Origin: Promethearchaeota archaeon
GTDB taxonomy: Archaea > Asgardarchaeota > Thorarchaeia > Thorarchaeales > Thorarchaeaceae
Length of the DNA stretch: 64,000 bases
Assembly: GCA_014728035.1 (NCBI GenBank)
Contig: WJMJ01000128.1
Coordinates: 16,139-80,138 of the forward strand
Direction of reading: 5' to 3'
Shown here: piece after piece, positions 21,513 to 50,946 of the stretch
Layout of the letters: each line of letters starts with the position of its first letter
How positions within the stretch are numbered: position 1 is the first letter of the stretch
Position numbers and translations under genes: made by a program
Notes under the pieces: model-generated
Seen by the model: only the letters and a program-made list of their open reading frames with translations
Told to the model about the DNA's origin: nothing
The model's database searches: none

Positions 21513-23828
21513 GTGACATCGCCCAAAATATTATCCGAAATTTCTGACGACTTAAGTACAAGCGCGATTGCAGTAGGAGATGTAACCGGTTCGGGTGAGC
21601 CGGAACTCTGTACTGGAGGACGTGATGGTGTATTACGTCTCTATAGCACAAATCATAGTTCGTATAAATTTCTAGCTCAACTGGACCTATCAGGAAGCAT
21701 TCTATCTATCAAGATTGCAGATGCAAATAATGATGGACAAAACGAAATTGTGATTGGTAGAAGTGTAGGGATTGGAGAAACACCAGGAGCAACTGGAACA
21801 GTTCAGATATACAGATACGCTCCAAGCGGGCAATTTGAACTATTGGCAGAACATGCTATTGATAGATTTGTTACCACTGTTGTAGTTACTGATGTCACAG
21901 GTGATGACAAAAACGAGATTGTTGCAGGAGGAAGTGATTCCACCCTCAGAGTTCTGAGAATGTCGCCTGAAAATCAATTATCTGAATATGCAAAATACCA
22001 ACTTGATGACATGCCGATTGCCATTGGTACTTGCGATGTGATTGGTGACGAGATTGATGAGATGGTCACTGGTAACCGTGATAAGACTCTGCGTGTATTC
22101 AAACTTCGAGAGGGTGTCATTGAGCAAATAGAAGTTCTTGAACTTCCCAGTCCAGTTATCTCAGTCACCTCAGGAGACATCCTGGGAGACCGAAAGATGG
22201 AACTTGGTGTTGTTACTCATGATGGCTCAATCAGAATTTACAGAAATGAAGAGAGTAAGCTTGACCTCTTCTCCACACTCGAGGATGTGAAAGCATTATC
22301 GATTAGAATGGAAGAGATAAATGCAGACCATATGGATGAGGTCATAATAGCTACTTCTGATATGAAAATCAATTTTTACAATCTGTATATGGCAGATCTG
22401 AACCTTGTAGCATCTGTAGATATAGACTCGAAAATACTAGCTCTAAGTGTAGGAGATTCGAGAGGGGATGAGCGGAAAGAGGTGCTTGTAGGAGTATCAA
22501 ATGGTCCATTGAAAATAATAGAGGGCCTCTACAAAGTTATTCCGAGTTTTGATATTCCACATTCCGCAAAAATTGGTAGTCCAATTATTGCCAAAGCAAC
22601 ACTAGAGAATGTCACAGACCAACCAATGACAGGAATCGCTGGGAAGATATACTGGTTTCCAAAAGATCACATGGAAATTTCAAATCAACAATTGCGATTC
22701 GACCTTGAACCAGGTGAGAAGAAAACCGTTGAAGTGAAACTCCTTCCAAAGAAAGAAGGTAGTGTCATCATTCGACCAGTCGTTCTGATGTGGAAAGACG
22801 ATCAAGAGAAAGTCAATCAAGTTACAACTCCAGAAACTGTTCTTCTGATAGAGAAAGGGGATGGAGAAGCTTTCATGACATCACTTGAGGAAGAAAGTTC
22901 AGAACCTGTCGAGTCAGTAGATTCTACACGAACTGAAACAGCCACTAAATTCACACCTGCAGAAGGAACTGGATTTAGTTCGATTCCAGACTCTGAAATA
23001 GCACAGATTACTTCACAAAAGAGTAGTCCTCAAGATTCGCTCAAGGAAGCTGAAGCTCTTTTGGATCAGTTATTTGGTGGTGAATCAGACGCGAAAGCGG
23101 CATTAGAGGACGTAAAATCCATGATGGGGTCAGAAACAGCTACCGAATCTGTTTCTACAACACCTGAAGATACCACGGAGCCAGAAGCCACGGAAGTTGA
23201 ATCTGATCTGGTCACCGAAATTCGGACCCGAAAACCAAAACCAACACGCCCCAATGCTTCAGCCGATGCCTATTCATACCTATTCAAGACCATGGTTATT
23301 GGTGAGGGTGCTGTTGGAAAGACAACACTGGTAAACCGTTATGTAACTGGTGTATTCGAACGAGATTACAAGACAACCATAGGATCACAATTTGCTGTTA
23401 AGCTAACGCATATCTCACCACCATCCAGCGAATATGCAGTTGGTATCAAGATACAAGCATGGGACGTTGCAGGACAAGCTAGATTCAAAGCTGTTAGGAA
23501 GATGTACTATTCTGGAGCAGCAGGGGTTATTTTGGTTTTTGATGTCACAAGACGCAGATCTTTCAAAGAGTTGCATAAATGGATAGAAGAAGCTGATTCT
23601 TCAATTGGAACCCGTGTCCCAATGATATGTGTAGGAAACAAAATTGACCTTCCAGATAGAGCAGTCAGTTCAGAAGAAGCCAAAAAGTGGGCTGAGGACC
23701 AAGGATTCCTCTACATGGAAAGCTCAGCAAAGACTGGGGAAGGTGTTGCTGACATGTTCACAGTTCTAGCAGAATTGATGTGGCGTGAAGCAAAGAAGAA
23801 TGCAGAGGCGAAAAAGAAGGGAATGTAG
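21513..23828 (+). CDS. FG-GAP/BBS2-like beta-propeller + Ig-like domain + acidic linker + Rab-like small GTPase fusion
   Basis: About seven repeats of the type D(V/I)xGDxxxE(I/L)VxGxxDxxLR; Ig sandwich; GTPase motifs GEGAVGKT, TTIGSQF, WDVAGQ, NKID, SSAK. Confidence 0.88.
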   Translation: MTSPKILSEISDDLSTSAIAVGDVTGSGEPELCTGGRDGVLRLYSTNHSSYKFLAQLDLSGSILSIKIADANNDGQNEIVIGRSVGIGETPGATGTVQIYRYAPSGQFELLAEHAIDRFVTTVVVTDVTGDDKNEIVAGGSDSTLRVLRMSPENQLSEYAKYQLDDMPIAIGTCDVIGDEIDEMVTGNRDKTLRVFKLREGVIEQIEVLELPSPVISVTSGDILGDRKMELGVVTHDGSIRIYRNEESKLDLFSTLEDVKALSIRMEEINADHMDEVIIATSDMKINFYNLYMADLNLVASVDIDSKILALSVGDSRGDERKEVLVGVSNGPLKIIEGLYKVIPSFDIPHSAKIGSPIIAKATLENVTDQPMTGIAGKIYWFPKDHMEISNQQLRFDLEPGEKKTVEVKLLPKKEGSVIIRPVVLMWKDDQEKVNQVTTPETVLLIEKGDGEAFMTSLEEESSEPVESVDSTRTETATKFTPAEGTGFSSIPDSEIAQITSQKSSPQDSLKEAEALLDQLFGGESDAKAALEDVKSMMGSETATESVSTTPEDTTEPEATEVESDLVTEIRTRKPKPTRPNASADAYSYLFKTMVIGEGAVGKTTLVNRYVTGVFERDYKTTIGSQFAVKLTHISPPSSEYAVGIKIQAWDVAGQARFKAVRKMYYSGAAGVILVFDVTRRRSFKELHKWIEEADSSIGTRVPMICVGNKIDLPDRAVSSEEAKKWAEDQGFLYMESSAKTGEGVADMFTVLAELMWREAKKNAEAKKKGM

Positions 23829-42474: not shown

Positions 42475-43098
42475 TCACTCTTTCTGACGTTCTTCAACAA
42501 GCGTCTTTGCTAATTGTTCAAAGATGTCAACAATTCCTTGTCCTGTCTTCGCACTTGACTCAACATAAGGCATGTCATGACGTTCTGCGAATTCTTTGCC
42601 CTCTGCAGGGTCTACAACACGATCTGGTAGGTCTGTTTTATTAGCAACAAGAACTAAAGGTATTTTCTTTCCTAGTGCTTTCTCTAATTCATTCAGCCAT
42701 TCTTCAAGAACGATAAACGTTCTTCGTCGACTAACATCATAGACGAGAATTCCACCACTAGACCCACGATAGTACATTGGACGTAGAATCTGAAAACGAG
42801 ACTGGCCAGCAACATCCCAAATTTGAAGTTTTACTGTTAGAGGATCACCACTACGGGAAGGGATCTCAAGGTTCTTCACGGCAAATTGAGAGCCGATTGT
42901 TGTCTTGTAATCTGTACGGAAAAATCCATGAGAGAAGCGTGTAACAATAGCAGTCTTACCTACTGCTCCTTCCCCTAGCACAACCACCTTAAACAGGAAA
43001 TCATAGCTACTACTCACGTGAACGCCTCGTTTGATTTTATAGGGAGTGGTCGAATCGAAATTCGACAATAACTTGTCCAAATCGTCAAGAAATGGCAA
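42475..43098 (-). CDS. Rab-like small GTPase
   Basis: GEGAVGKT, TTIGSQF, KLQIWDVAGQ, YYRGS, LVYDVS, NKTD, SSAK; no C-terminal Cys. Confidence 0.93.
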   Translation of the reverse strand: MPFLDDLDKLLSNFDSTTPYKIKRGVHVSSSYDFLFKVVVLGEGAVGKTAIVTRFSHGFFRTDYKTTIGSQFAVKNLEIPSRSGDPLTVKLQIWDVAGQSRFQILRPMYYRGSSGGILVYDVSRRRTFIVLEEWLNELEKALGKKIPLVLVANKTDLPDRVVDPAEGKEFAERHDMPYVESSAKTGQGIVDIFEQLAKTLVEERQKE

Positions 43099-44053: not shown

Positions 44054-45436
44054 GTGACCATAATGACAAAGCTGTTTGGTACTACTGGAGTTAGAAAAAT
44101 TTACGGAACTGAATTTGATGTTGAGATGGCCTTGAAGTTGGGAAAGTCTCTAGGTACGTATCTCAAGGAGGGTACTGTCCTGATAGCACGAGATGCTAGA
44201 ACTACCGGACTTATGATTGCTGATGCCCTTTCTGCGGGATTATTGTCAACCGGAGTAAATGTAGTACGTGGTGGAATCATTCCAACGCCAACGTTGGCAT
44301 TGATGACTAGAGAGCTCGGATATGATGCAGGTTTGATGGTCACAGCATCACATAATCCACCAGAATACACTGGAGTGAAGTTCTGGGGAGCAGACAGTAT
44401 GGGACTTACACAAGATGTTGAGTCTAAATTGGAAGAGATCTTTCATTCAGAACAGTACCAAGTTGCCACGTGGAAAAAGCTTGGAAATGAGTCAAGTAAT
44501 GGTACATTGGTAGCAAGTCATATTGAAAGATTGCTTGAAAGGTGTGATGTTGATAAAATACGTTCAAAGAAATACAAAGTAATTGTTGACCCAGGCAATG
44601 GAGCTGCCTGTGTACTTACTCCATATCTTATGCAAGAATTGGGATGCAAGGTAGTCACTGTAAACGGTCAACTGGATGGACATTTTCCAGGTAGAAAATC
44701 AGAACCTGAAAAAGAGTCCCTAACAGACTTAATTCGGCTGATTGAAAATACTGGGGCAGACTTGGGAATTGCACATGATGGGGATTCGGACCGGGTTGTA
44801 TTTGTGACCGAAACAGGGGAAGTAATTCGTGGTGATCGGACAATTGCTTTTCTGGCACAAGAGTATCTCAAGACTACCGCTAGCAAGACCATTGTTACAA
44901 CAGTAGATAGCTCACAGGTTCTAGATGAAACCGTTAAGAAAGCAGGTGGCGAAACTATCCGTACTCCGGTCGGAGATATTCAAGTTGCAATAAAGATTCG
45001 AGATGAAGATGCAGCAATGGGAGGAGAGGCATGTGGTGTATTTATCTTCCCGGAATTTCATTTGGCACCTGAGCCATTTTTGGCAGCTTGTAAGATTCTT
45101 GAAATCATGGCGAAGACAGACAAATCCTTTGGGAGTCTAATTACAAATATTCCGATTTATCCTCTTCAGAAATCAAAAGTCCCCTGTGCTAACGAATTGA
45201 AACCTAAAGCAATGGAAAAGCTATCAGATGTGCTTCCCAAAGCCATGGGAGATGTCGTTGAAGTCTTAACTGTTGACGGTCTGGGAGTGTTTCTTAAGAA
45301 AGGCTGGGTTCTTGTACGTCCATCAGGAACAGAACCAATCATTCGTATAACCTGTGAAGCTCCAGAAGAGGAAATAACTCAGAATATCCTCAAACAAGCA
45401 AAATCGATCGTAGAGGAAACAATGGAAACTCTTTGA
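44054..45436 (+). CDS. glmM: Phosphoglucosamine mutase / phosphohexomutase
   Basis: LFGTTGVR, TASHNP, DGDSDR, GGEACG, VRPSGTEP; substrate specificity (GlmM versus PMM/PGM) not resolved. Confidence 0.8.
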   Translation: MTIMTKLFGTTGVRKIYGTEFDVEMALKLGKSLGTYLKEGTVLIARDARTTGLMIADALSAGLLSTGVNVVRGGIIPTPTLALMTRELGYDAGLMVTASHNPPEYTGVKFWGADSMGLTQDVESKLEEIFHSEQYQVATWKKLGNESSNGTLVASHIERLLERCDVDKIRSKKYKVIVDPGNGAACVLTPYLMQELGCKVVTVNGQLDGHFPGRKSEPEKESLTDLIRLIENTGADLGIAHDGDSDRVVFVTETGEVIRGDRTIAFLAQEYLKTTASKTIVTTVDSSQVLDETVKKAGGETIRTPVGDIQVAIKIRDEDAAMGGEACGVFIFPEFHLAPEPFLAACKILEIMAKTDKSFGSLITNIPIYPLQKSKVPCANELKPKAMEKLSDVLPKAMGDVVEVLTVDGLGVFLKKGWVLVRPSGTEPIIRITCEAPEEEITQNILKQAKSIVEETMETL

Positions 45437-45967: not shown

Positions 45968-46681
45968 TCAGAGCAGTGTTTTGACACTGTTTTCAGGATA
46001 GAATGGTCCTGCATGTTCTGGTAAAGAGATTGTAAAAGCTTCTGCACGTTTTACATCAGCTTGTACGCCCCGTAGACGAGTTCGAGCATCATACAGTTTC
46101 TCATAGAAATCATTAGCTTTTGATATCTGTGATTTGTGCTGCTTCAATGCCCGAAGTGCAGTAGAGTAGGATTCTGAAATATCTACTTGGATGTGAGGGT
46201 GAGAATGTAAAGAGTTGATCTCCATATGATAGATCCTTTCTACACGATGGGCGTTATCAAAAATCGTAATATGAGATGCCCACTCAACTGCTTGTTGTAC
46301 TATTTGGACGCAAATCTGGTGATTTCTGTTATAATCATCTTCAGAATGTGTGATAATGATAGTTGGACGTGACTTGAGAATTGTAGCCACTACCTCGTGG
46401 ACCATACTCATGTCTATATCAAAATCATCCCGTTCACTAAGATAGAGATTTCGCACACCAAGAACTGTACACGCCTTTTTCAGTTCCTCATTTCGTTCGT
46501 CATTACCAGTCATACAATGAACATCAACTGGAATGCCATTTCTCACATGTTGATGAATCGTTCCTCCAGCACCTAAAGATTCATCATCAGGATGAGCAAC
46601 AATAACGAGTAGAGAAGGAGATTTACCAGACATAATGAGTGCTTTTCTTTTCTTCAATATCAACATTGTGAAAGAAAGCAA
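45968..46681 (-). CDS. bshB1: PIG-L family deacetylase, BshB1-like
   Basis: AHPDDE, RNEE, VDIS...HKSQ, AEAF; divergent from bshA; real start probably MSGKS (~46633). Confidence 0.75.
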   Translation of the reverse strand: MLSFTMLILKKRKALIMSGKSPSLLVIVAHPDDESLGAGGTIHQHVRNGIPVDVHCMTGNDERNEELKKACTVLGVRNLYLSERDDFDIDMSMVHEVVATILKSRPTIIITHSEDDYNRNHQICVQIVQQAVEWASHITIFDNAHRVERIYHMEINSLHSHPHIQVDISESYSTALRALKQHKSQISKANDFYEKLYDARTRLRGVQADVKRAEAFTISLPEHAGPFYPENSVKTLL

Positions 46682-46734
46682 TATGCTCCTACCACTGTTC
46701 TTAAAGGTGGGCTAAATTAGTTAGTAACAAAAAG

Positions 46735-47907
46735 GTGAACTACTTGAAAATAGGAGTGAATATGTATCCCTCCGTCGGAGGTTCTGGATACCTTGCTACA
46801 AGATTGAGCCAAAATCTTGCACATCGAAATCACATAATCCACTTTATCACCTATGAACGTCCATTCTCTTTGATGTGGGAACAACCAAAAGGGATTCACG
46901 TCGATCTTGTTGATAGATTTGATTATCCATTATTCAAAGCAGTTGGTCCCCCATATTCAATGGCTCTTACGTCAAAAATACTAAAGGTTGTCAAAGAGGC
47001 GAAATTGGACCTTATTCACGCACATTACGCAATTCCACACGCAATGTCTGCTTATATGGCACGAGAAATCTCTGGCATACCATATGTAGTTACATTACAT
47101 GGCTCTGATGTACACACTCTTGGTCTTGATCCAGCATACAAACCAGTAGTTCAATATACTGTCCAGAAAGCTAATGCGGTTACTGCAGTTTCTGAATTTT
47201 TAAAGGAAAAGGCAGTAAACGAACTGGGAATAGAACGTAAGATACATGTCATTCCAAACTTCATTGATGTAGAAGAATTTCAACCAGCCAATGATTGCAG
47301 ATTGGTAGTTGAAAGCGGATGTGTTTCTTTACGACAGGTTGAGGATCCGGAGGCAATCCATCCAGAGGAAAAGGTTCTCTTGCATGCATCAAACTTCAGG
47401 TCGGTAAAACGAGTTGTGGATATAATAGAAATCATGAGGATTGTTGTCGATCATCAACCTGAAACACGATTGATAATCGCTGGAGACGGGCCGACTCGAA
47501 TAGAGGTGGAGAGGAAAATCGAGGCATTGGATTTGTGTAATCATGTTCACCTCTTAGGAGTCAAGAGTAATATCCAAGAGATTATGTGTTCGGCAGATTT
47601 GTTCATACTGAATTCCACACTGGAAGGAATGCCATTAGTACTCTTGGAATCCATGGCTTGCCAATTGCCCATTGTTACAACTCCAGCAGGAGGAATTCCT
47701 GAACTCGTTCGACCGGGACTGGATGGAGTGGTTACAAAAGGATTTGAGCAAGAAGAATTTGCAGAAGCTATCATTGATTTATTAGTTGATGACAAAAAGA
47801 GAAAAAGATTTGCAGTGGCTGGAAGAAAGCGAGTTGAAGAATCATTTTCTGCAAAGGCAATTGTACCAAAATACGAAAAGGTCTTTGAAGAAGTTGTCGG
47901 AAAATAG
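46735..47907 (+). CDS. bshA: N-acetyl-alpha-D-glucosaminyl L-malate synthase (GT4)
   Basis: YPSVGGSG, PYSMALTSK, HAHYAIPH, TLHGSD, HASNFRSVKRV are BshA hallmarks. Confidence 0.9.
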   Translation: MNYLKIGVNMYPSVGGSGYLATRLSQNLAHRNHIIHFITYERPFSLMWEQPKGIHVDLVDRFDYPLFKAVGPPYSMALTSKILKVVKEAKLDLIHAHYAIPHAMSAYMAREISGIPYVVTLHGSDVHTLGLDPAYKPVVQYTVQKANAVTAVSEFLKEKAVNELGIERKIHVIPNFIDVEEFQPANDCRLVVESGCVSLRQVEDPEAIHPEEKVLLHASNFRSVKRVVDIIEIMRIVVDHQPETRLIIAGDGPTRIEVERKIEALDLCNHVHLLGVKSNIQEIMCSADLFILNSTLEGMPLVLLESMACQLPIVTTPAGGIPELVRPGLDGVVTKGFEQEEFAEAIIDLLVDDKKRKRFAVAGRKRVEESFSAKAIVPKYEKVFEEVVGK

Positions 47908-47921
47908 GATGTCATTATTGT

Positions 47922-49637
47922 ATGAAACCAAGTATCTTTCGAGTCTATCAGGAGTTCATTTGGAAAGAAGAGCATAAAGAATTAGCAGAAAAGCTCTATG
48001 ATGATCCTATCAGAAAAATGGGAAGCCTAGTATCAAGAGGAAAAACTATCCTCACAAAGTACAAAGAAACAAAATGGTTTACTCAAGAGAGAGTTGAGGG
48101 TATTCAGCATGTTTTGACAGAGATAAACAAAGAGATAGGATGTCTCACCCCAAAAGTGAGTGATTCGATAACGAATCTCCATCAAGGAGCAGTCGAATCT
48201 GCACATCAAACAGTAGTCATGGGTGGACCGGGATACATATTGAACAAAGCTGCTTCTGCAGTATCAATTTCAACCTATTGTGGTGATAACGGATTCCCTG
48301 TCACTCCATATTTCTGTGTTGCTGACTATGATGTAGTACAATCCGAGTTGACTAACATTAGAACACCGAATATGGGTCAGAGTGGAAATCTGGTAAGCAT
48401 CCCAGTTCCAGAAGGATACGAGAACTCTCCTGTAAGTCATCTTCCATTACCTGGATTCGAGTGGTATTCAAAGATAGAAGAATCAATTCGATCAAGCTAT
48501 CGTCCCTTCTTTAAGATGTTAGAAAGAACAGCTCATACACTCTTCGCTGAAAGACTTGAGAACTGTTTAACAGTAACACGGGATGCATTTGTGAACTCAA
48601 CTACACTGGGAGAATGGGCGACTAGAATACTAGGAAAATTGTTCAATATCATTGGAGATTTGGGAATACCTCTAGTTCCAGCTGGAGATGTCAGGCTTCG
48701 AAAATACATTTGTGAAGGACTAGAATACCTACTTCAAACAAAGAATCGTGAGATATTCTTGAAAGCCCACGATGAAGCTACAAGATTGATTACTAACAAC
48801 GGATATGCTTCTGGCGCAGGACCAAGAGGGCGTGATTACGTTCCATTTCTCTACGAGTGTCCTAATTCAGGATGTAACAGAAGCAGGACTGAACTCAATT
48901 ATCAAGATGTTGGAAACAAAGCAATTCTTGAAGGTAAATGTATTGAATGTGGAGAGCAGATTCAGATTGAAGTCGATAAAGATTCACCAGATCTATCAGA
49001 ATATGCGCCCTATCTTTCGTTGCGTGTCGATTCTAGACAACTTGCGATAGATACAATCATACCTACAATAGCCCATGTAGGGGGGCCTGGAGAAACAGCA
49101 TATTATGCACAAGTAATTCCAGCTGCTAAGATGATGAACGAGCCATTTCCATTATTTATGAGATATCCCAGAACATATTTCAACACACCTTGGACTGAAA
49201 CGTTAGGCAAGGAACTGAAACAAAAAGAGATTCCTGTTCTTCACGAGGGGAAGCTCTTCAAGCTTAGCGGGAAGGTCAACAAGTTCAGAAGGAAAGAACA
49301 GTTCGAGAAAATGAATGAAGCGATCTTTGAATTTAATGCATTCATTCATCAAGTTCATTCACAACTCAACGATACGCATGAGCAAAAAGTACAAGAAATT
49401 GAACAAGCATCCGGTGAGAAGTATGACAAATTGCAGATGCTCAAGTTAGATATAGAAAAATATCTCAGTTGGACATTTGGACAATACGCACCAAAAAAGC
49501 TTGGTCAAGAGTCAACATGGTCATGGATAGAGTGGGCATTGAATTCAGGATTCACTGATCTCTTTGGAGCTTATCATAGGGCACACTCAGAAGGATTGAA
49601 GAATGGCGCAACGCTCTTTGTGAATTTCATGGTATGA
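47922..49637 (+). CDS. bshC: Bacillithiol biosynthesis cysteine-adding enzyme BshC-like
   Basis: SAHQ..MGGPGYILNK, VADYD, PTIAHVGGPGETAYYAQ...PR; 571 aa; helical C-terminus; follows bshA. Confidence 0.82.
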   Translation: MKPSIFRVYQEFIWKEEHKELAEKLYDDPIRKMGSLVSRGKTILTKYKETKWFTQERVEGIQHVLTEINKEIGCLTPKVSDSITNLHQGAVESAHQTVVMGGPGYILNKAASAVSISTYCGDNGFPVTPYFCVADYDVVQSELTNIRTPNMGQSGNLVSIPVPEGYENSPVSHLPLPGFEWYSKIEESIRSSYRPFFKMLERTAHTLFAERLENCLTVTRDAFVNSTTLGEWATRILGKLFNIIGDLGIPLVPAGDVRLRKYICEGLEYLLQTKNREIFLKAHDEATRLITNNGYASGAGPRGRDYVPFLYECPNSGCNRSRTELNYQDVGNKAILEGKCIECGEQIQIEVDKDSPDLSEYAPYLSLRVDSRQLAIDTIIPTIAHVGGPGETAYYAQVIPAAKMMNEPFPLFMRYPRTYFNTPWTETLGKELKQKEIPVLHEGKLFKLSGKVNKFRRKEQFEKMNEAIFEFNAFIHQVHSQLNDTHEQKVQEIEQASGEKYDKLQMLKLDIEKYLSWTFGQYAPKKLGQESTWSWIEWALNSGFTDLFGAYHRAHSEGLKNGATLFVNFMV

Positions 49638-49674: not shown

Positions 49675-50946
49675 CTATTCAAGTTCTTTTGTAAGAAGTT
49701 CTCCCAATCTATGAATTCCCTCGGAAATAATCTCAGGCGTTGCATAGGAGAATCCAATTCGCATCGTATTGCTCTCTGGTTTGCTATCAATTAGGTCGTT
49801 GCCATTATCTGACAAAGTATACCCAGAAATTGGATAGAAGGGGCCTCCAGGAACATAGAGCAAATCATTAGGAATCGCAACTTCTTGCATGAAACGACTA
49901 CTATCAAAGTCCTTATTCTCACTTTCCCACCAGATAAAGAATCCTCCAGTAGGATCTGTACGAGTCCCTGCAGGGAAGGACTCATCAATTGCTACAGCCA
50001 TTGCCTCGTATCTCTTTCGATACAATGGAATCGCTTTTGCCATCGCTTCATCAATGTATTTGCTATAATATTCATCAAGAATACGTTGGACTAACGTGGA
50101 TGTACAAAGATCAAGATAGCCCTTATCTTTCAAAACCTGTTCACGGACTGATACGGGAAGAACCGAATACCCAACTCGCAGTACTGCAGCTTCTTTACTT
50201 GTTGTCCCAAGATATGCTACTCGCAAATTATCTTTGTCAAGAGTCTTAATTGGAGGGGGATTCTTTTTGAACTGGATTTCAGCATAAGCCGAGTCTTCCA
50301 GAAGTAGCATATTATGACTCTCACAGATATCAAATAGTGCTTGACGCCGACTCATTGGGAGGGTAGTGCCCTTTGGATTGTCTGAGTCTGGAACCACATA
50401 GAGAATATCGGGAGTTTTTCCAAATTTTATTTTTGAAACACGAACCGCCTTTTCAACATATTCGGGAATGATGCCTTCCAAGTCTGTAGGAACCGTGATA
50501 ATGCGAGCACCAAGTTTCACCGCAGGTACTAAGAACCCAAGATATGCTGGAGAAGGTGTGATAATCACATCTCCGGGGTCTATCATTGTATCAAGAAGTG
50601 CATAGAGCGCTTGTTGAGACCCATTTGTTATGGAAACATTTTGCCATTCATCAGTACAGTCAATAGGAATACCTCGAACATCACAAAGCCGTTTTGCTAA
50701 GGTTTTGAGAAACCAAGGTTGACCCCCGGTTGGGCCATAATTAAGATCCTCAAGTGCCAATTTTGGATCTTTAGCATATACCTCACTCAGATCTGCAAGA
50801 ATCTTTGAGAAGATATTAGTAGGCATGATGCCCGGTTTTCCACCTGCAAAGTAATATTTGACATTATACTTCAAAAGGGCTCGAATCTGTGATTCTTCAA
50901 TAAAAGAAGTCCATGTCGCAAAGCCATAAGAACCGTTTTTAGCCAT
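49675..50946 (-). CDS. PLP-dependent aminotransferase class I/II (LysN/ARO8-like)
   Basis: YGPTGG, TNGSQQAL, NPKG, EDSAY, GTTSK...LRVGY, MRIGFS. Confidence 0.92.
   Translation of the reverse strand: MAKNGSYGFATWTSFIEESQIRALLKYNVKYYFAGGKPGIMPTNIFSKILADLSEVYAKDPKLALEDLNYGPTGGQPWFLKTLAKRLCDVRGIPIDCTDEWQNVSITNGSQQALYALLDTMIDPGDVIITPSPAYLGFLVPAVKLGARIITVPTDLEGIIPEYVEKAVRVSKIKFGKTPDILYVVPDSDNPKGTTLPMSRRQALFDICESHNMLLLEDSAYAEIQFKKNPPPIKTLDKDNLRVAYLGTTSKEAAVLRVGYSVLPVSVREQVLKDKGYLDLCTSTLVQRILDEYYSKYIDEAMAKAIPLYRKRYEAMAVAIDESFPAGTRTDPTGGFFIWWESENKDFDSSRFMQEVAIPNDLLYVPGGPFYPISGYTLSDNGNDLIDSKPESNTMRIGFSYATPEIISEGIHRLGELLTKELE

Follow-up and report, generated by a model that had tools for sequence, protein, structure and literature searches.

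A linked bshB, bshA and bshC gene set in Thorarchaeota that probably encodes a bacillithiol-type thiol pathway

Introduction

Among the closest described systems to the locus reported here is the bacterial bacillithiol pathway of Bacillus, Staphylococcus and Deinococcus, with which it shares the three enzyme families and the physical linkage of bshA, bshB and bshC. The bacterial reference set comprises BshA (TIGR03999; structures 5D00, 2JJM and 6D9T), BshB1/B2 (TIGR04001/04000; 2IXD and 6P2T) and BshC (TIGR03998; 4WBD). In bacteria, bshC was first identified through its co-occurrence and co-localization with bshA, and no in vitro reconstitution of BshC activity has been achieved, even with the bacterial enzyme (PMC5790435). 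For archaea, 39 BshA and 39 BshC matches, mostly Asgard, have been reported (Rawat and Maupin-Furlow 2020, PMC7278568). Measurements of bacillithiol itself, a sugar-cysteine antioxidant, come from bacteria only, and no archaeon has been found to contain it (PMC7278568). The gene-level idea of an archaeal pathway is not new, having been published there and annotated in GenBank, which already labels these proteins BshC. The Thorarchaeota locus analyzed here, contained in a 64,000-nucleotide stretch of DNA hereafter called the window, is therefore one more instance and not a discovery. New here are four Asgard gene arrangements, three Thor-specific motif changes and the finding that known recycling enzymes were not detected in the genome.

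Results

The bshB, bshA and bshC open reading frames were intact where a first-pass annotation, made from the sequence alone, had placed them (Table 1). Alignment suggested that the likely true start of bshB is an ATG near 46638. The A+T-rich spacer that separates the divergent bshB and bshA genes is presumed to act as a bidirectional promoter, and the 14-bp gap between the bshA stop and the bshC start, which agrees with the first-pass annotation, suggests that these two genes are probably co-transcribed. The glmM-like mutase noted nearby was recognized as an archaeal GlmM (524 bits against TIGR03990, cut-off 439), lying two genes upstream with one small ORF between it and bshB. Its position beside the cluster is kept in all Thor genera checked. 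GlmM provides GlcN-1-P for UDP-GlcNAc, the BshA donor, and a functional tie to the bsh cluster would be consistent with this placement. A search of the 4.33-Mb genome found the PIG-L gene and the PF10079 gene of the cluster to be the only ones of their kind.

Table 1 Features of the Thorarchaeota cluster and its neighbors, in window positions.
Feature	Position	Strand	Remarks
Archaeal phosphoglucosamine mutase GlmM	44054..45436	+	TIGR03990, four PGM/PMM Pfam domains
bshB	45968-46681	-	237-aa ORF
BshB N-R-N-H, residues 118-121, replacing H-P-D-H	46319..46330	-	alignment A2, 2IXD
BshB AHPDD motif, residues 29-33	46583..46597	-	two of three zinc ligands and catalytic Asp
bshB/bshA divergent intergenic region	46639..46734	.	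~96 bp, A+T-rich; starts placed from alignments
bshA, GT4 retaining glycosyltransferase, N-acetylglucosaminyl L-malate synthase family	46735..47907	+	390 aa, GTG start
BshA EX7E motif, E297-G-M-P-L-V-L-L-E305	47623..47649	+	alignment A3
bshC-like, putative cysteine-adding enzyme, Asgard-type clade	47922..49637	+	571 aa
BshC four-cysteine ribbon, C313-x4-C318 ... C340-x2-C343	48858..48950	+	beta-hairpin insert
BshC GGPGETAYYAQ motif, residues 387-397	49080..49112	+	counterpart in B. subtilis BshC: AGPGEINYW
Class I/II aminotransferase	49675-50946		convergent to bshC-like gene

BshA was the only protein of the three to pass its curated equivalog cut-off. It scored 380.2 bits against TIGR03999 (cut-off 273.7) over model positions 1-374 of 375, a surplus of 106 bits, and the next family scored 147 bits. 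The N-terminus MNYLKIG aligned to MRKLKIG of B. subtilis BshA, and the five best PDB matches were all BshA structures (5D00 at 257 bits, followed by 2JJM, 3MBO, 6N1X and 6D9T). The first-pass annotation had recognized BshA by its hallmark motifs, and these were borne out: the GT4 catalytic motifs GGSG, TLHG(S/T)D, SNFRxVK, EX7E and GGIPE are present in the window protein, and in alignment A3 the acceptor-side and catalytic motifs, among them GGSG, HYAIPH, TLHGSD, SNFRxVK, GDGP and GGIPE, were invariant. The GlcNAc-binding motif ESFG, highly conserved across BshA (PMC10361700), was sought in the window protein, which carries EGMP instead. Within alignment A3, EGMP is common to five Thor genera, family f14 has EGAP at this position, and ESFG or ESFN is kept in families f8, f9, f10, f32 and f13. 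At the equivalent position of the Neisseria meningitidis capsule polymerases, Gly versus Pro switches the use of UDP-Glc and UDP-Gal (PMC10361700). Because EGMP recurs in another, unrelated GT4 of this genome, the motif is a weak and non-specific marker of a galactose-type donor. An insert of about 20 residues was found in Thor BshA only (A3); together with EGMP, it weighs against the pathway.

The divergent PIG-L deacetylase on the minus strand, BshB, was likewise recognized by profile search (70.5 bits against PF02585, cut-off 28.2). The BshB1 family TIGR04001 was its best-scoring family yet was not passed (87.5 bits, cut-off 182.5), and its best solved relatives were the BshB1 structures 2IXD and 6P2T. 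In alignment A2, H30, D32 and D33 were invariant in 11 Asgard BshB-like proteins, with AHPDD aligning to AHADD of 2IXD, and the zinc ligands H30, D33 and H121 were all invariant and aligned with those of 2IXD. A complete H-P-D-H was not found in the window BshB, where Asn stands in place of both the first His and the Asp. The five Thor sequences, one from each of five genera including the window, read DYNR(N/G/A)H against DRHPDH of 2IXD, and this loss of the first His and the Asp also counts against the pathway. Families f14, f10, f32 and f13 retain that first His (H-x-[DE]-H), and exact H-P-D-H occurs in f13, f32 and one f14 sequence.

BshC scored 59.8 bits against PF10079, the BshC Rossmann-like domain (cut-off 27), and 68.5 bits against TIGR03998, which it did not pass (cut-off 265.8). 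BshB and BshC thus both lie far under their curated cut-offs, a further point against the pathway. The AlphaFold model of BshC (pLDDT 92.4, pTM 0.92) had as its top Foldseek match 4WBD, the B. subtilis BshC, whose fold it shares along its full length (E 1.7e-18, TM 0.66/0.69), followed by a class I LysRS (E 1e-8, TM 0.37). Thirteen residues were invariant over the Asgard-type sequences and one bacterial-type sequence in alignment A1. G388, E391 and Y394 of the GGPGETAYYAQ motif, whose presence in the gene downstream of bshA had been correctly noted at first pass, were invariant in the same alignment, and a core of Q96, G102, K109, D137, E142, the GPGE motif and Y394 also matched B. subtilis BshC in a pairwise alignment. 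C313 and C340 of the four-cysteine ribbon were nearly invariant in A1. The Cys4 pattern was present in 18 of the 28 Asgard-type BshC representatives listed and in one bacterial-type sequence among those listed, P0203, a long-branch exception among bacterial-type BshCs that, where examined, otherwise have no Cys4 ribbon. No cysteine aligned at the ribbon position in B. subtilis BshC. The ribbon is probably a zinc binder.

In unrooted trees built with FastTree and IQ-TREE, a branch with support of 100 separated the Asgard-type BshCs from the bacterial BshCs sampled, one of which is named for Acetohalobium. The window BshC was placed outside the bacterial clade, and by these unrooted trees the Asgard-type clade is sister to the sampled bacterial BshCs. 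Named members of the Asgard-type clade are all archaeal and almost all Asgard, with some named 'Bathyarchaeota' and Harpocratesius. The first-pass annotation had described a complete bacillithiol-type cluster and had proposed profile searches and phylogeny as a check. All three families are indeed present and BshA passes its model; with BshB and BshC below theirs, BshC outside the sampled bacterial clade, substitutions in normally conserved active-site motifs of BshA and BshB, and no Brx, YtxJ or YpdA partner found, neither completeness nor bacillithiol as the product is established.

Taken together, the three Thor-specific motif changes leave the exact product uncertain. A possible, though unlikely, reading keeps the pathway logic and changes the product to a structural variant in place of bacillithiol itself, for example a galactosamine epimer from a UDP-GalNAc donor, a compound built on a different hydroxy acid or a thiol that is modified further. 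The three Thor-specific deviations fall in substrate-contacting motifs, with EGMP standing for ESFG at the UDP-Glc/UDP-Gal switch position of the N. meningitidis polymerases (PMC10361700), N-R-N-H for H-P-D-H in BshB, and a BshC from a clade of its own that bears a Cys4 ribbon. Relatives in which a GT2 replaces BshA show that the Asgard pathway tolerates an altered first step. This reading has to contend with the 106-bit surplus of BshA and its invariant acceptor-domain motifs, with the EGMP of the unrelated GT4, and with other Asgard families of the same BshC type, in which ESFG is retained and the BshB motif still has its first His.

Across the Thor family, a BshC-like gene was found in 79 of 85 genomes and BshA in 76 of 85. 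The gene order of a 12-kb block is kept in four further Thor genera (five with the window). Adjacent bshA and bshC genes occur in differing arrangements in families f1, f8, f9, f10, f14 and f32, with bshB alongside in f1, f10, f14 and f32; this linkage across Asgard families follows the same logic by which bacterial bshC was discovered (PMC5790435). In f11, f12, f21, f22 and f23, Asgard-type BshC is present and BshA is not, so the enzyme is not tied strictly to bacillithiol, a point against the pathway. The stronger argument, that BshC without BshA lies outside any thiol pathway, was softened, since GT2 and PIG-L genes adjoin the BshC-like gene in f21 and f22; a Thermus control genome, which has BshC and no BshA above the cut-off, bears on the same point. 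No glycosyltransferase was found in the gene neighborhood of the f11 BshC-like gene. Four Asgard arrangements can be told apart. Asgard-type BshC is paired with a GT4 BshA in one, belongs to a GT2-based cassette in another and stands as an orphan BshC-like gene in a third; the fourth is a bacterial-type operon, probably acquired on a separate occasion. The class I/II aminotransferase was considered as a BshC partner, since in f1 and in the BshA-less f11 alike it and the BshC-like gene are convergent. Its orthologues lie apart from the BshC-like gene in f8, f13 and f14, and because orthologues of 50-60% identity are widespread in BshC-less Asgard families, it was rejected and taken as housekeeping.

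Profile searches for the Brx, YpdA and BstA partners that the first-pass annotation had suggested found none of them. In the genome, which is 97.9% complete, neither BrxA/B (TIGR04191) nor YtxJ/BrxC (TIGR04019) had a match, and the best match to YpdA/Bdr (TIGR04018) reached 78 bits against a cut-off of 339.9. Three DinB_2 proteins are encoded and could be thiol S-transferases; as BstA candidates they were rejected, with no NCBIfam match to any BstA model. These results weigh against the pathway and, if it operates, imply a reductase outside the known set. The absence of BrxA/B and YtxJ does not discriminate, since both were also undetected in BshC-bearing Thermus and Deinococcus controls, where Deinococcus alone gave a sub-cut-off YtxJ match.

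The missing recycling and usage genes would also fit a product that is not a redox thiol, such as an aminoacyl-hexosamine or GlcN-malate compound that serves as osmolyte, cofactor precursor or glycoconjugate, the BshC-like protein then adding something other than cysteine. The five families with Asgard-type BshC and no BshA point the same way, and no organism's BshC has a proven substrate (PMC5790435). We consider this improbable: residues common to both BshC clades are kept, the core ones in B. subtilis too, the gene is closely linked to a genuine bshA as in bacteria, and the controls that carry BshC also yielded no BrxA/B or YtxJ.

That the cluster is bacterial DNA, brought in by binning contamination or very recent transfer, as the 8.5% contamination estimate of the genome bin and the typically bacterial nature of BSH genes might suggest, is effectively refuted by an 80-kb contig bearing Ras-family GTPases, a V-type ATPase subunit and an archaeal GlmM, by synteny of the whole block in five Thor genera, by a cluster G+C (0.40-0.41) that matches the window, and by a BshC clade in which every named member is archaeal. 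The best match to BshC, 72% identical, is named Thorarchaeota. The first-pass annotation's view of an Asgard host, of a composition like that of the window and of no recent transfer is thus upheld.

Discussion

We consider it fairly likely that these genes form a three-gene, chromosomal and vertically inherited Thorarchaeota pathway for a bacillithiol-type low-molecular-weight thiol. The pathway is real and old and is probably functional, and its product is most likely bacillithiol or a close variant. Starting from the observed genes, families, BshC fold, conserved residues, gene linkage and distribution, we infer every substrate and product as follows. BshA would join an N-acetylhexosamine to L-malate, the sugar most likely being GlcNAc donated by UDP-GlcNAc, with the neighboring GlmM feeding this nucleotide-sugar pool. 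The single PIG-L deacetylase would strip the acetyl group, and the Asgard-type BshC, a predicted class-I aminoacyl-tRNA-synthetase-like Rossmann enzyme that carries an additional four-cysteine ribbon, would couple cysteine to the amine thus freed and give Cys-HexN-malate.

The altered BshA sugar-binding motif and the altered BshB pocket suggest a more speculative proposal, which we hold to be rather unlikely. Thorarchaeota, together with f14, would make a previously undescribed bacillithiol isomer or derivative, for example a galactosamine-based one, and the Asgard-type BshC would be an old sister lineage of bacterial BshC whose study could reveal the BshC reaction and its activated cysteine donor. 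The Asgard-type enzyme may in any case serve as a second system for this still unsolved reaction. If Thorarchaeota do make bacillithiol, redox buffering in the closest prokaryotic relatives of eukaryotes relies on a 'bacterial' sugar-cysteine compound and not on glutathione, which would bear on the change of redox buffering during eukaryote origins.

Comparison with known systems

Mycothiol biosynthesis in Actinobacteria (MshA, MshB, MshC) follows the same logic: a GT4 enzyme transfers GlcNAc, a PIG-L protein deacetylates the product, and a relative of the class I aminoacyl-tRNA synthetases ligates cysteine. The Thor proteins differ from it: the MshA model gave 60 bits (cut-off 462.5) and the MshB model 29.5 bits (cut-off 224), the cluster contains no MshC/CysRS-type ligase and no MshD, and the mycothiol acceptor is inositol phosphate, not malate. 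The cassette of f21 and f22, composed of GT2, PIG-L, BshC-like and amidohydrolase genes, shares the BshC clade and its tight clustering with PIG-L. Its first enzyme is a GT2 and it includes an Amidohydro_2 gene; in the window, a true GT4 BshA takes the first step and amidohydrolase genes are absent.

The bshC-bshB-bshA operon of f13 also has an archaeal host, with a close relative named Heimdallarchaeota, and carries all three genes. Unlike the Thor protein, f13 BshC is nested in the bacterial clade (SH-aLRT 98) and has no Cys4 ribbon; f13 BshA scores, at 405-423 bits, are the highest of the phylum, and the three genes lie on one strand. These features point to a separate acquisition from bacteria. 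Compared with the bacterial pathway itself, all three archaeal enzymes deviate from those studied. The Thor BshC has a Cys4 ribbon and is part of an Asgard-type clade distinct from the bacterial one, a single deacetylase is present with no BshB2/Bca, BrxA/B, BrxC (YtxJ) and YpdA (Bdr) were undetected in the genome, and the host belongs to the Archaea. The Thor and bacterial enzymes have in common the fold and core residues of BshC and the zinc ligands of BshB.

Gene cluster layout and host

The three open reading frames that the first-pass annotation had read as a bacillithiol-type biosynthesis cluster were found where it placed them, with bshB divergent and bshC starting 14 bp past the bshA stop; the motif GGPGETAYYAQ that it noted in BshC is located at residues 387-397. 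The divergent bshB and bshA starts are about 96 bp apart, in A+T-rich DNA. The nearby glmM-like mutase matched the archaeal-type model TIGR03990 (524 bits, cut-off 439) and, as described, lies two genes away, with one small ORF intervening. This ORF keeps its position in five Thor genera, had no match in Pfam or NCBIfam searches, and seems to have no role in making the thiol. The G+C content of the cluster (0.40-0.41) is the same as that of the remainder of the window, in agreement with the compositional claim.

The window lies within a contig of 80 kb; the bin, of 4.33 Mb, has an estimated completeness of 97.9% and contamination of 8.5%. The closest BshC relative, 72% identical, is assigned to Candidatus Thorarchaeota, as are most of the other named top matches, and the window codes for Ras-family small GTPases, a GTPase fusion protein, V-type ATPase subunit I and indolepyruvate oxidoreductase. 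The whole block (orf195, Ras GTPase, alpha/beta hydrolase, glmM, orf131, bshB, bshA, bshC, aminotransferase, OMP-decarboxylase-like gene, orf351, NUDIX) recurs in the same order in another four Thor genera, where the proteins are 44-94% identical. Bacterial contamination and recent transfer, the latter already doubted in the first pass, are therefore excluded, and the host is archaeal. In Thorarchaeota this is a real cluster of old origin, and selection acts on it. The two GTPase genes included in the table are typical Asgard signature genes and aided placement of the contig.

Features of the window and of related Asgard loci (L numbers, extracted loci; f numbers, Asgard families, f1 being the Thor family)
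Feature	Position	Strand	Remarks
771-aa protein	21513-23828	+	small-GTPase domain at end
Ras-family small GTPase	42475-43098	-	165 bits to PF00071
glmM, archaeal type	44054-45436		
Small ORF, 131 aa	45568-45963	+	between glmM and bshB
bshB	45968-46681	-	
bshA	46735-47907	+	
Thor-only BshA insert, about 20 residues	47292-47365	+	residues about 187-210, RLVVESGCVSLR..., between two Rossmann domains
bshC	47922-49637	+	
Class I/II PLP aminotransferase	49675-50946	-	convergent to BshC-like gene in Thor family
f13 bshC-bshB-bshA operon	L047:5162-8564; L046:7709-9580	same strand	BshC without four-cysteine ribbon
f11 orphan Asgard-type BshC-like gene	L044:7155-8846; L045:7266-8960; L048:6492-8183		with four-cysteine ribbon
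f11 aminotransferase	L044:8864-10135; L045:5921-7177; L048:8239-9552		convergent to BshC-like gene; f11 distant, without BshA
Thioredoxin-reductase-like flavoprotein, Pyr_redox_2, 314 aa	L052:7181-8125	+	genome G205, f22; divergent, adjoins GT2/PIG-L/BshC-like cassette

BshA and BshB

Profile searches upheld the assignment of BshA, which scores 380.2 bits against the curated equivalog model TIGR03999 (cut-off 273.7), whereas BshB and BshC fall below their equivalog cut-offs. The five best solved relatives of BshA are all BshA enzymes. In all five Thor genera aligned, the EX7E motif of this GT4 enzyme is E-G-M-P; f14 has E-G-A-P and the other Asgard BshAs E-S-F-G. ESFG is the GlcNAc-contacting motif and is highly conserved in BshA; in meningococcal capsule polymerases, glycine or proline at the fourth position switches between UDP-Glc and UDP-Gal use (PMC10361700). 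A galacto-type donor for Thor BshA is thus conceivable, a weak reading since an unrelated GT4 of the same genome also has EGMP. The Thor BshA insert was found neither in any other Asgard BshA aligned nor in B. subtilis BshA.

The genome has a single PIG-L gene, and its product is BshB (PF02585, 70.5 bits, cut-off 28.2). The top-scoring family of this protein is BshB1, yet at 87.5 bits it remains under the cut-off of 182.5; among solved structures, the BshB1 entries 2IXD and 6P2T come closest. The AHPDD motif and the third zinc ligand, H121, are retained. Among the Asgard BshB-like proteins aligned, an exact H-P-D-H motif is limited to f13, f32 and one f14 sequence, the first histidine is retained in f10, f13, f14 and f32, and Thor BshB has N-R-(N/G/A)-H. 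By work on MshB, the first histidine assists catalysis, and the asparagine that replaces it could still hydrogen-bond. Strict conservation of this asparagine argues that Thor BshB is active and that its pocket is altered.

BshC fold and subfamily

The window BshC, product of the sole PF10079 gene of the genome, passed that model (59.8 bits, cut-off 27) and not TIGR03998 (68.5 bits, cut-off 265.8). A sequence search of the PDB matched 4WBD alone (E 1e-4). The AlphaFold model, for which the alignment input was 26 Asgard sequences, was confident (pLDDT 92.4, pTM 0.92); its top structural match was B. subtilis BshC, 4WBD (E 1.7e-18, TM 0.66/0.69), and the next was class I lysyl-tRNA synthetase (E 1e-8). 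Thirteen residues are invariant in 26/26 aligned BshC-like sequences, among them one, from f13, of bacterial type: Y9, Q96, G102, K109, D137, E142, R260, G388, E391, Y394, P410, Q529 and E530. Pairwise alignment showed that Q96, G102, K109, D137, E142, the GPGE motif and Y394 are common to B. subtilis BshC.

Of 1.84 billion cluster representatives searched by profile, 5869 proved to be relatives. A top group scored from 850 to about 230 bits; below a gap came ordinary BshC, at no more than 170 bits, the group that includes BshC of the bacterium Acetohalobium. Named members of the top group were Thor-, Heimdall-, Odin-, 'Promethearchaeota', Ranarchaeia and Harpocratesius, with one cluster labelled Bathyarchaeota; its lowest rows (for example P0165, 233 bits) proved to be of bacterial type. 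Instead of falling inside the bacterial BshC clade, the Asgard-type BshCs formed one side of a support-100 branch in both the FastTree (88 rows) and IQ-TREE (45 rows) trees. A C-x(1-6)-C ... C-x2-C pattern occurs in 18 of the 28 Asgard-type representatives listed, the window cysteines C313, C318, C340 and C343 sitting in a beta-hairpin insert; bacterial-type representatives are without it, except for the long-branch sequence P0203. From the fold match, invariant residues and tree, the window BshC is therefore homologous to bacterial BshC over its full length, in structure and in sequence, yet belongs to an old and separate archaeal subfamily of mostly Asgard-named sequences. GenBank lists as Candidatus Bathyarchaeota one protein cluster (P0127/P0285) that is of Asgard type, has the four-cysteine ribbon and comes from contigs of up to 335 kb. 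The clade must then reach past Asgard archaea, unless these bins are misassigned.

Distribution in Asgard archaea

In a survey of 400 Asgard genomes, Asgard-type BshC (E 1e-10 or better) was present in 195 and BshA above its own cut-off in 146. The Thor family has BshC in 79/85 and BshA in 76/85 genomes. Both are near-universal in f1, f8, f9, f10 and f14, and occur also in f7 (single genome sampled) and one f32 genome. The genes adjoin in tandem in f1 and convergently in f8, f9, f14 and f32; in f10, one genome has them as convergent neighbours, and another has them on the same strand with about 3 kb between them. The bshB gene is next to them in f1, f10, f14 and f32. That this linkage survives rearrangement between families gives good grounds to think that bshA and bshC share a function; the same argument first revealed bshC in bacteria (PMC5790435).

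The f13 operon differs in that its BshC is placed among the bacterial BshCs (SH-aLRT 98); f13 BshA scores are the highest of the phylum. With this operon, Asgard archaea appear to have acquired the pathway a second time, independently. Asgard-type BshC without BshA was found in f11, f12, f21, f22 and f23. In f21 and f22 the BshC-like gene belongs to a cassette of GT2, PIG-L, BshC-like and amidohydrolase genes, and the adjoining f22 flavoprotein may be a disulfide reductase for an Asgard thiol or, equally, an ordinary thioredoxin reductase. The f11 gene has an aminotransferase, ArgRS and an LPG-synthase-TM protein as neighbours, with no glycosyltransferase (BshA or GT2) nearby, and complete genome G067 has no GT4 match to the BshA model at E 1e-25. 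The repeated adjacency of BshC-like and aminotransferase genes may reflect ancestral gene order; the same aminotransferase is widespread in Asgard genomes without BshC.

Redox partners and function

The bacillithiol redox partners suggested for a genome search gave nothing above cut-off. There was no BrxA/B (TIGR04191) or YtxJ/BrxC (TIGR04019), the best match to the YpdA/Bdr model (78 bits) was far under the cut-off of 339.9, and the three DinB_2 proteins of the genome matched no BstA model. Little can be read from the absence of Brx and YtxJ, because control genomes of Thermus and Deinococcus carry BshC and yet have no match to these models above cut-offs. As judged from its genes, the cluster probably serves to make bacillithiol or a close Cys-hexosamine-malate variant, with about a third of that likelihood falling to a variant product.

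For no organism has the reaction of BshC been reconstituted (PMC5790435). A 2025 survey of RefSeq by BLAST thresholds reported the full pathway in no archaeon (PMC12719100); divergent archaeal BshB and BshC would miss such thresholds, and most metagenome bins are absent from RefSeq. Archaeal InterPro matches already numbered 39 BshA and 39 BshC, mostly Asgard (Rawat and Maupin-Furlow 2020, PMC7278568). The present analysis adds the absence of the known recycling enzymes, three Thor-specific motif changes and a map of four Asgard gene arrangements. Since Asgard bsh genes are already known at the gene level, the Thor cluster is one more case of a known kind.
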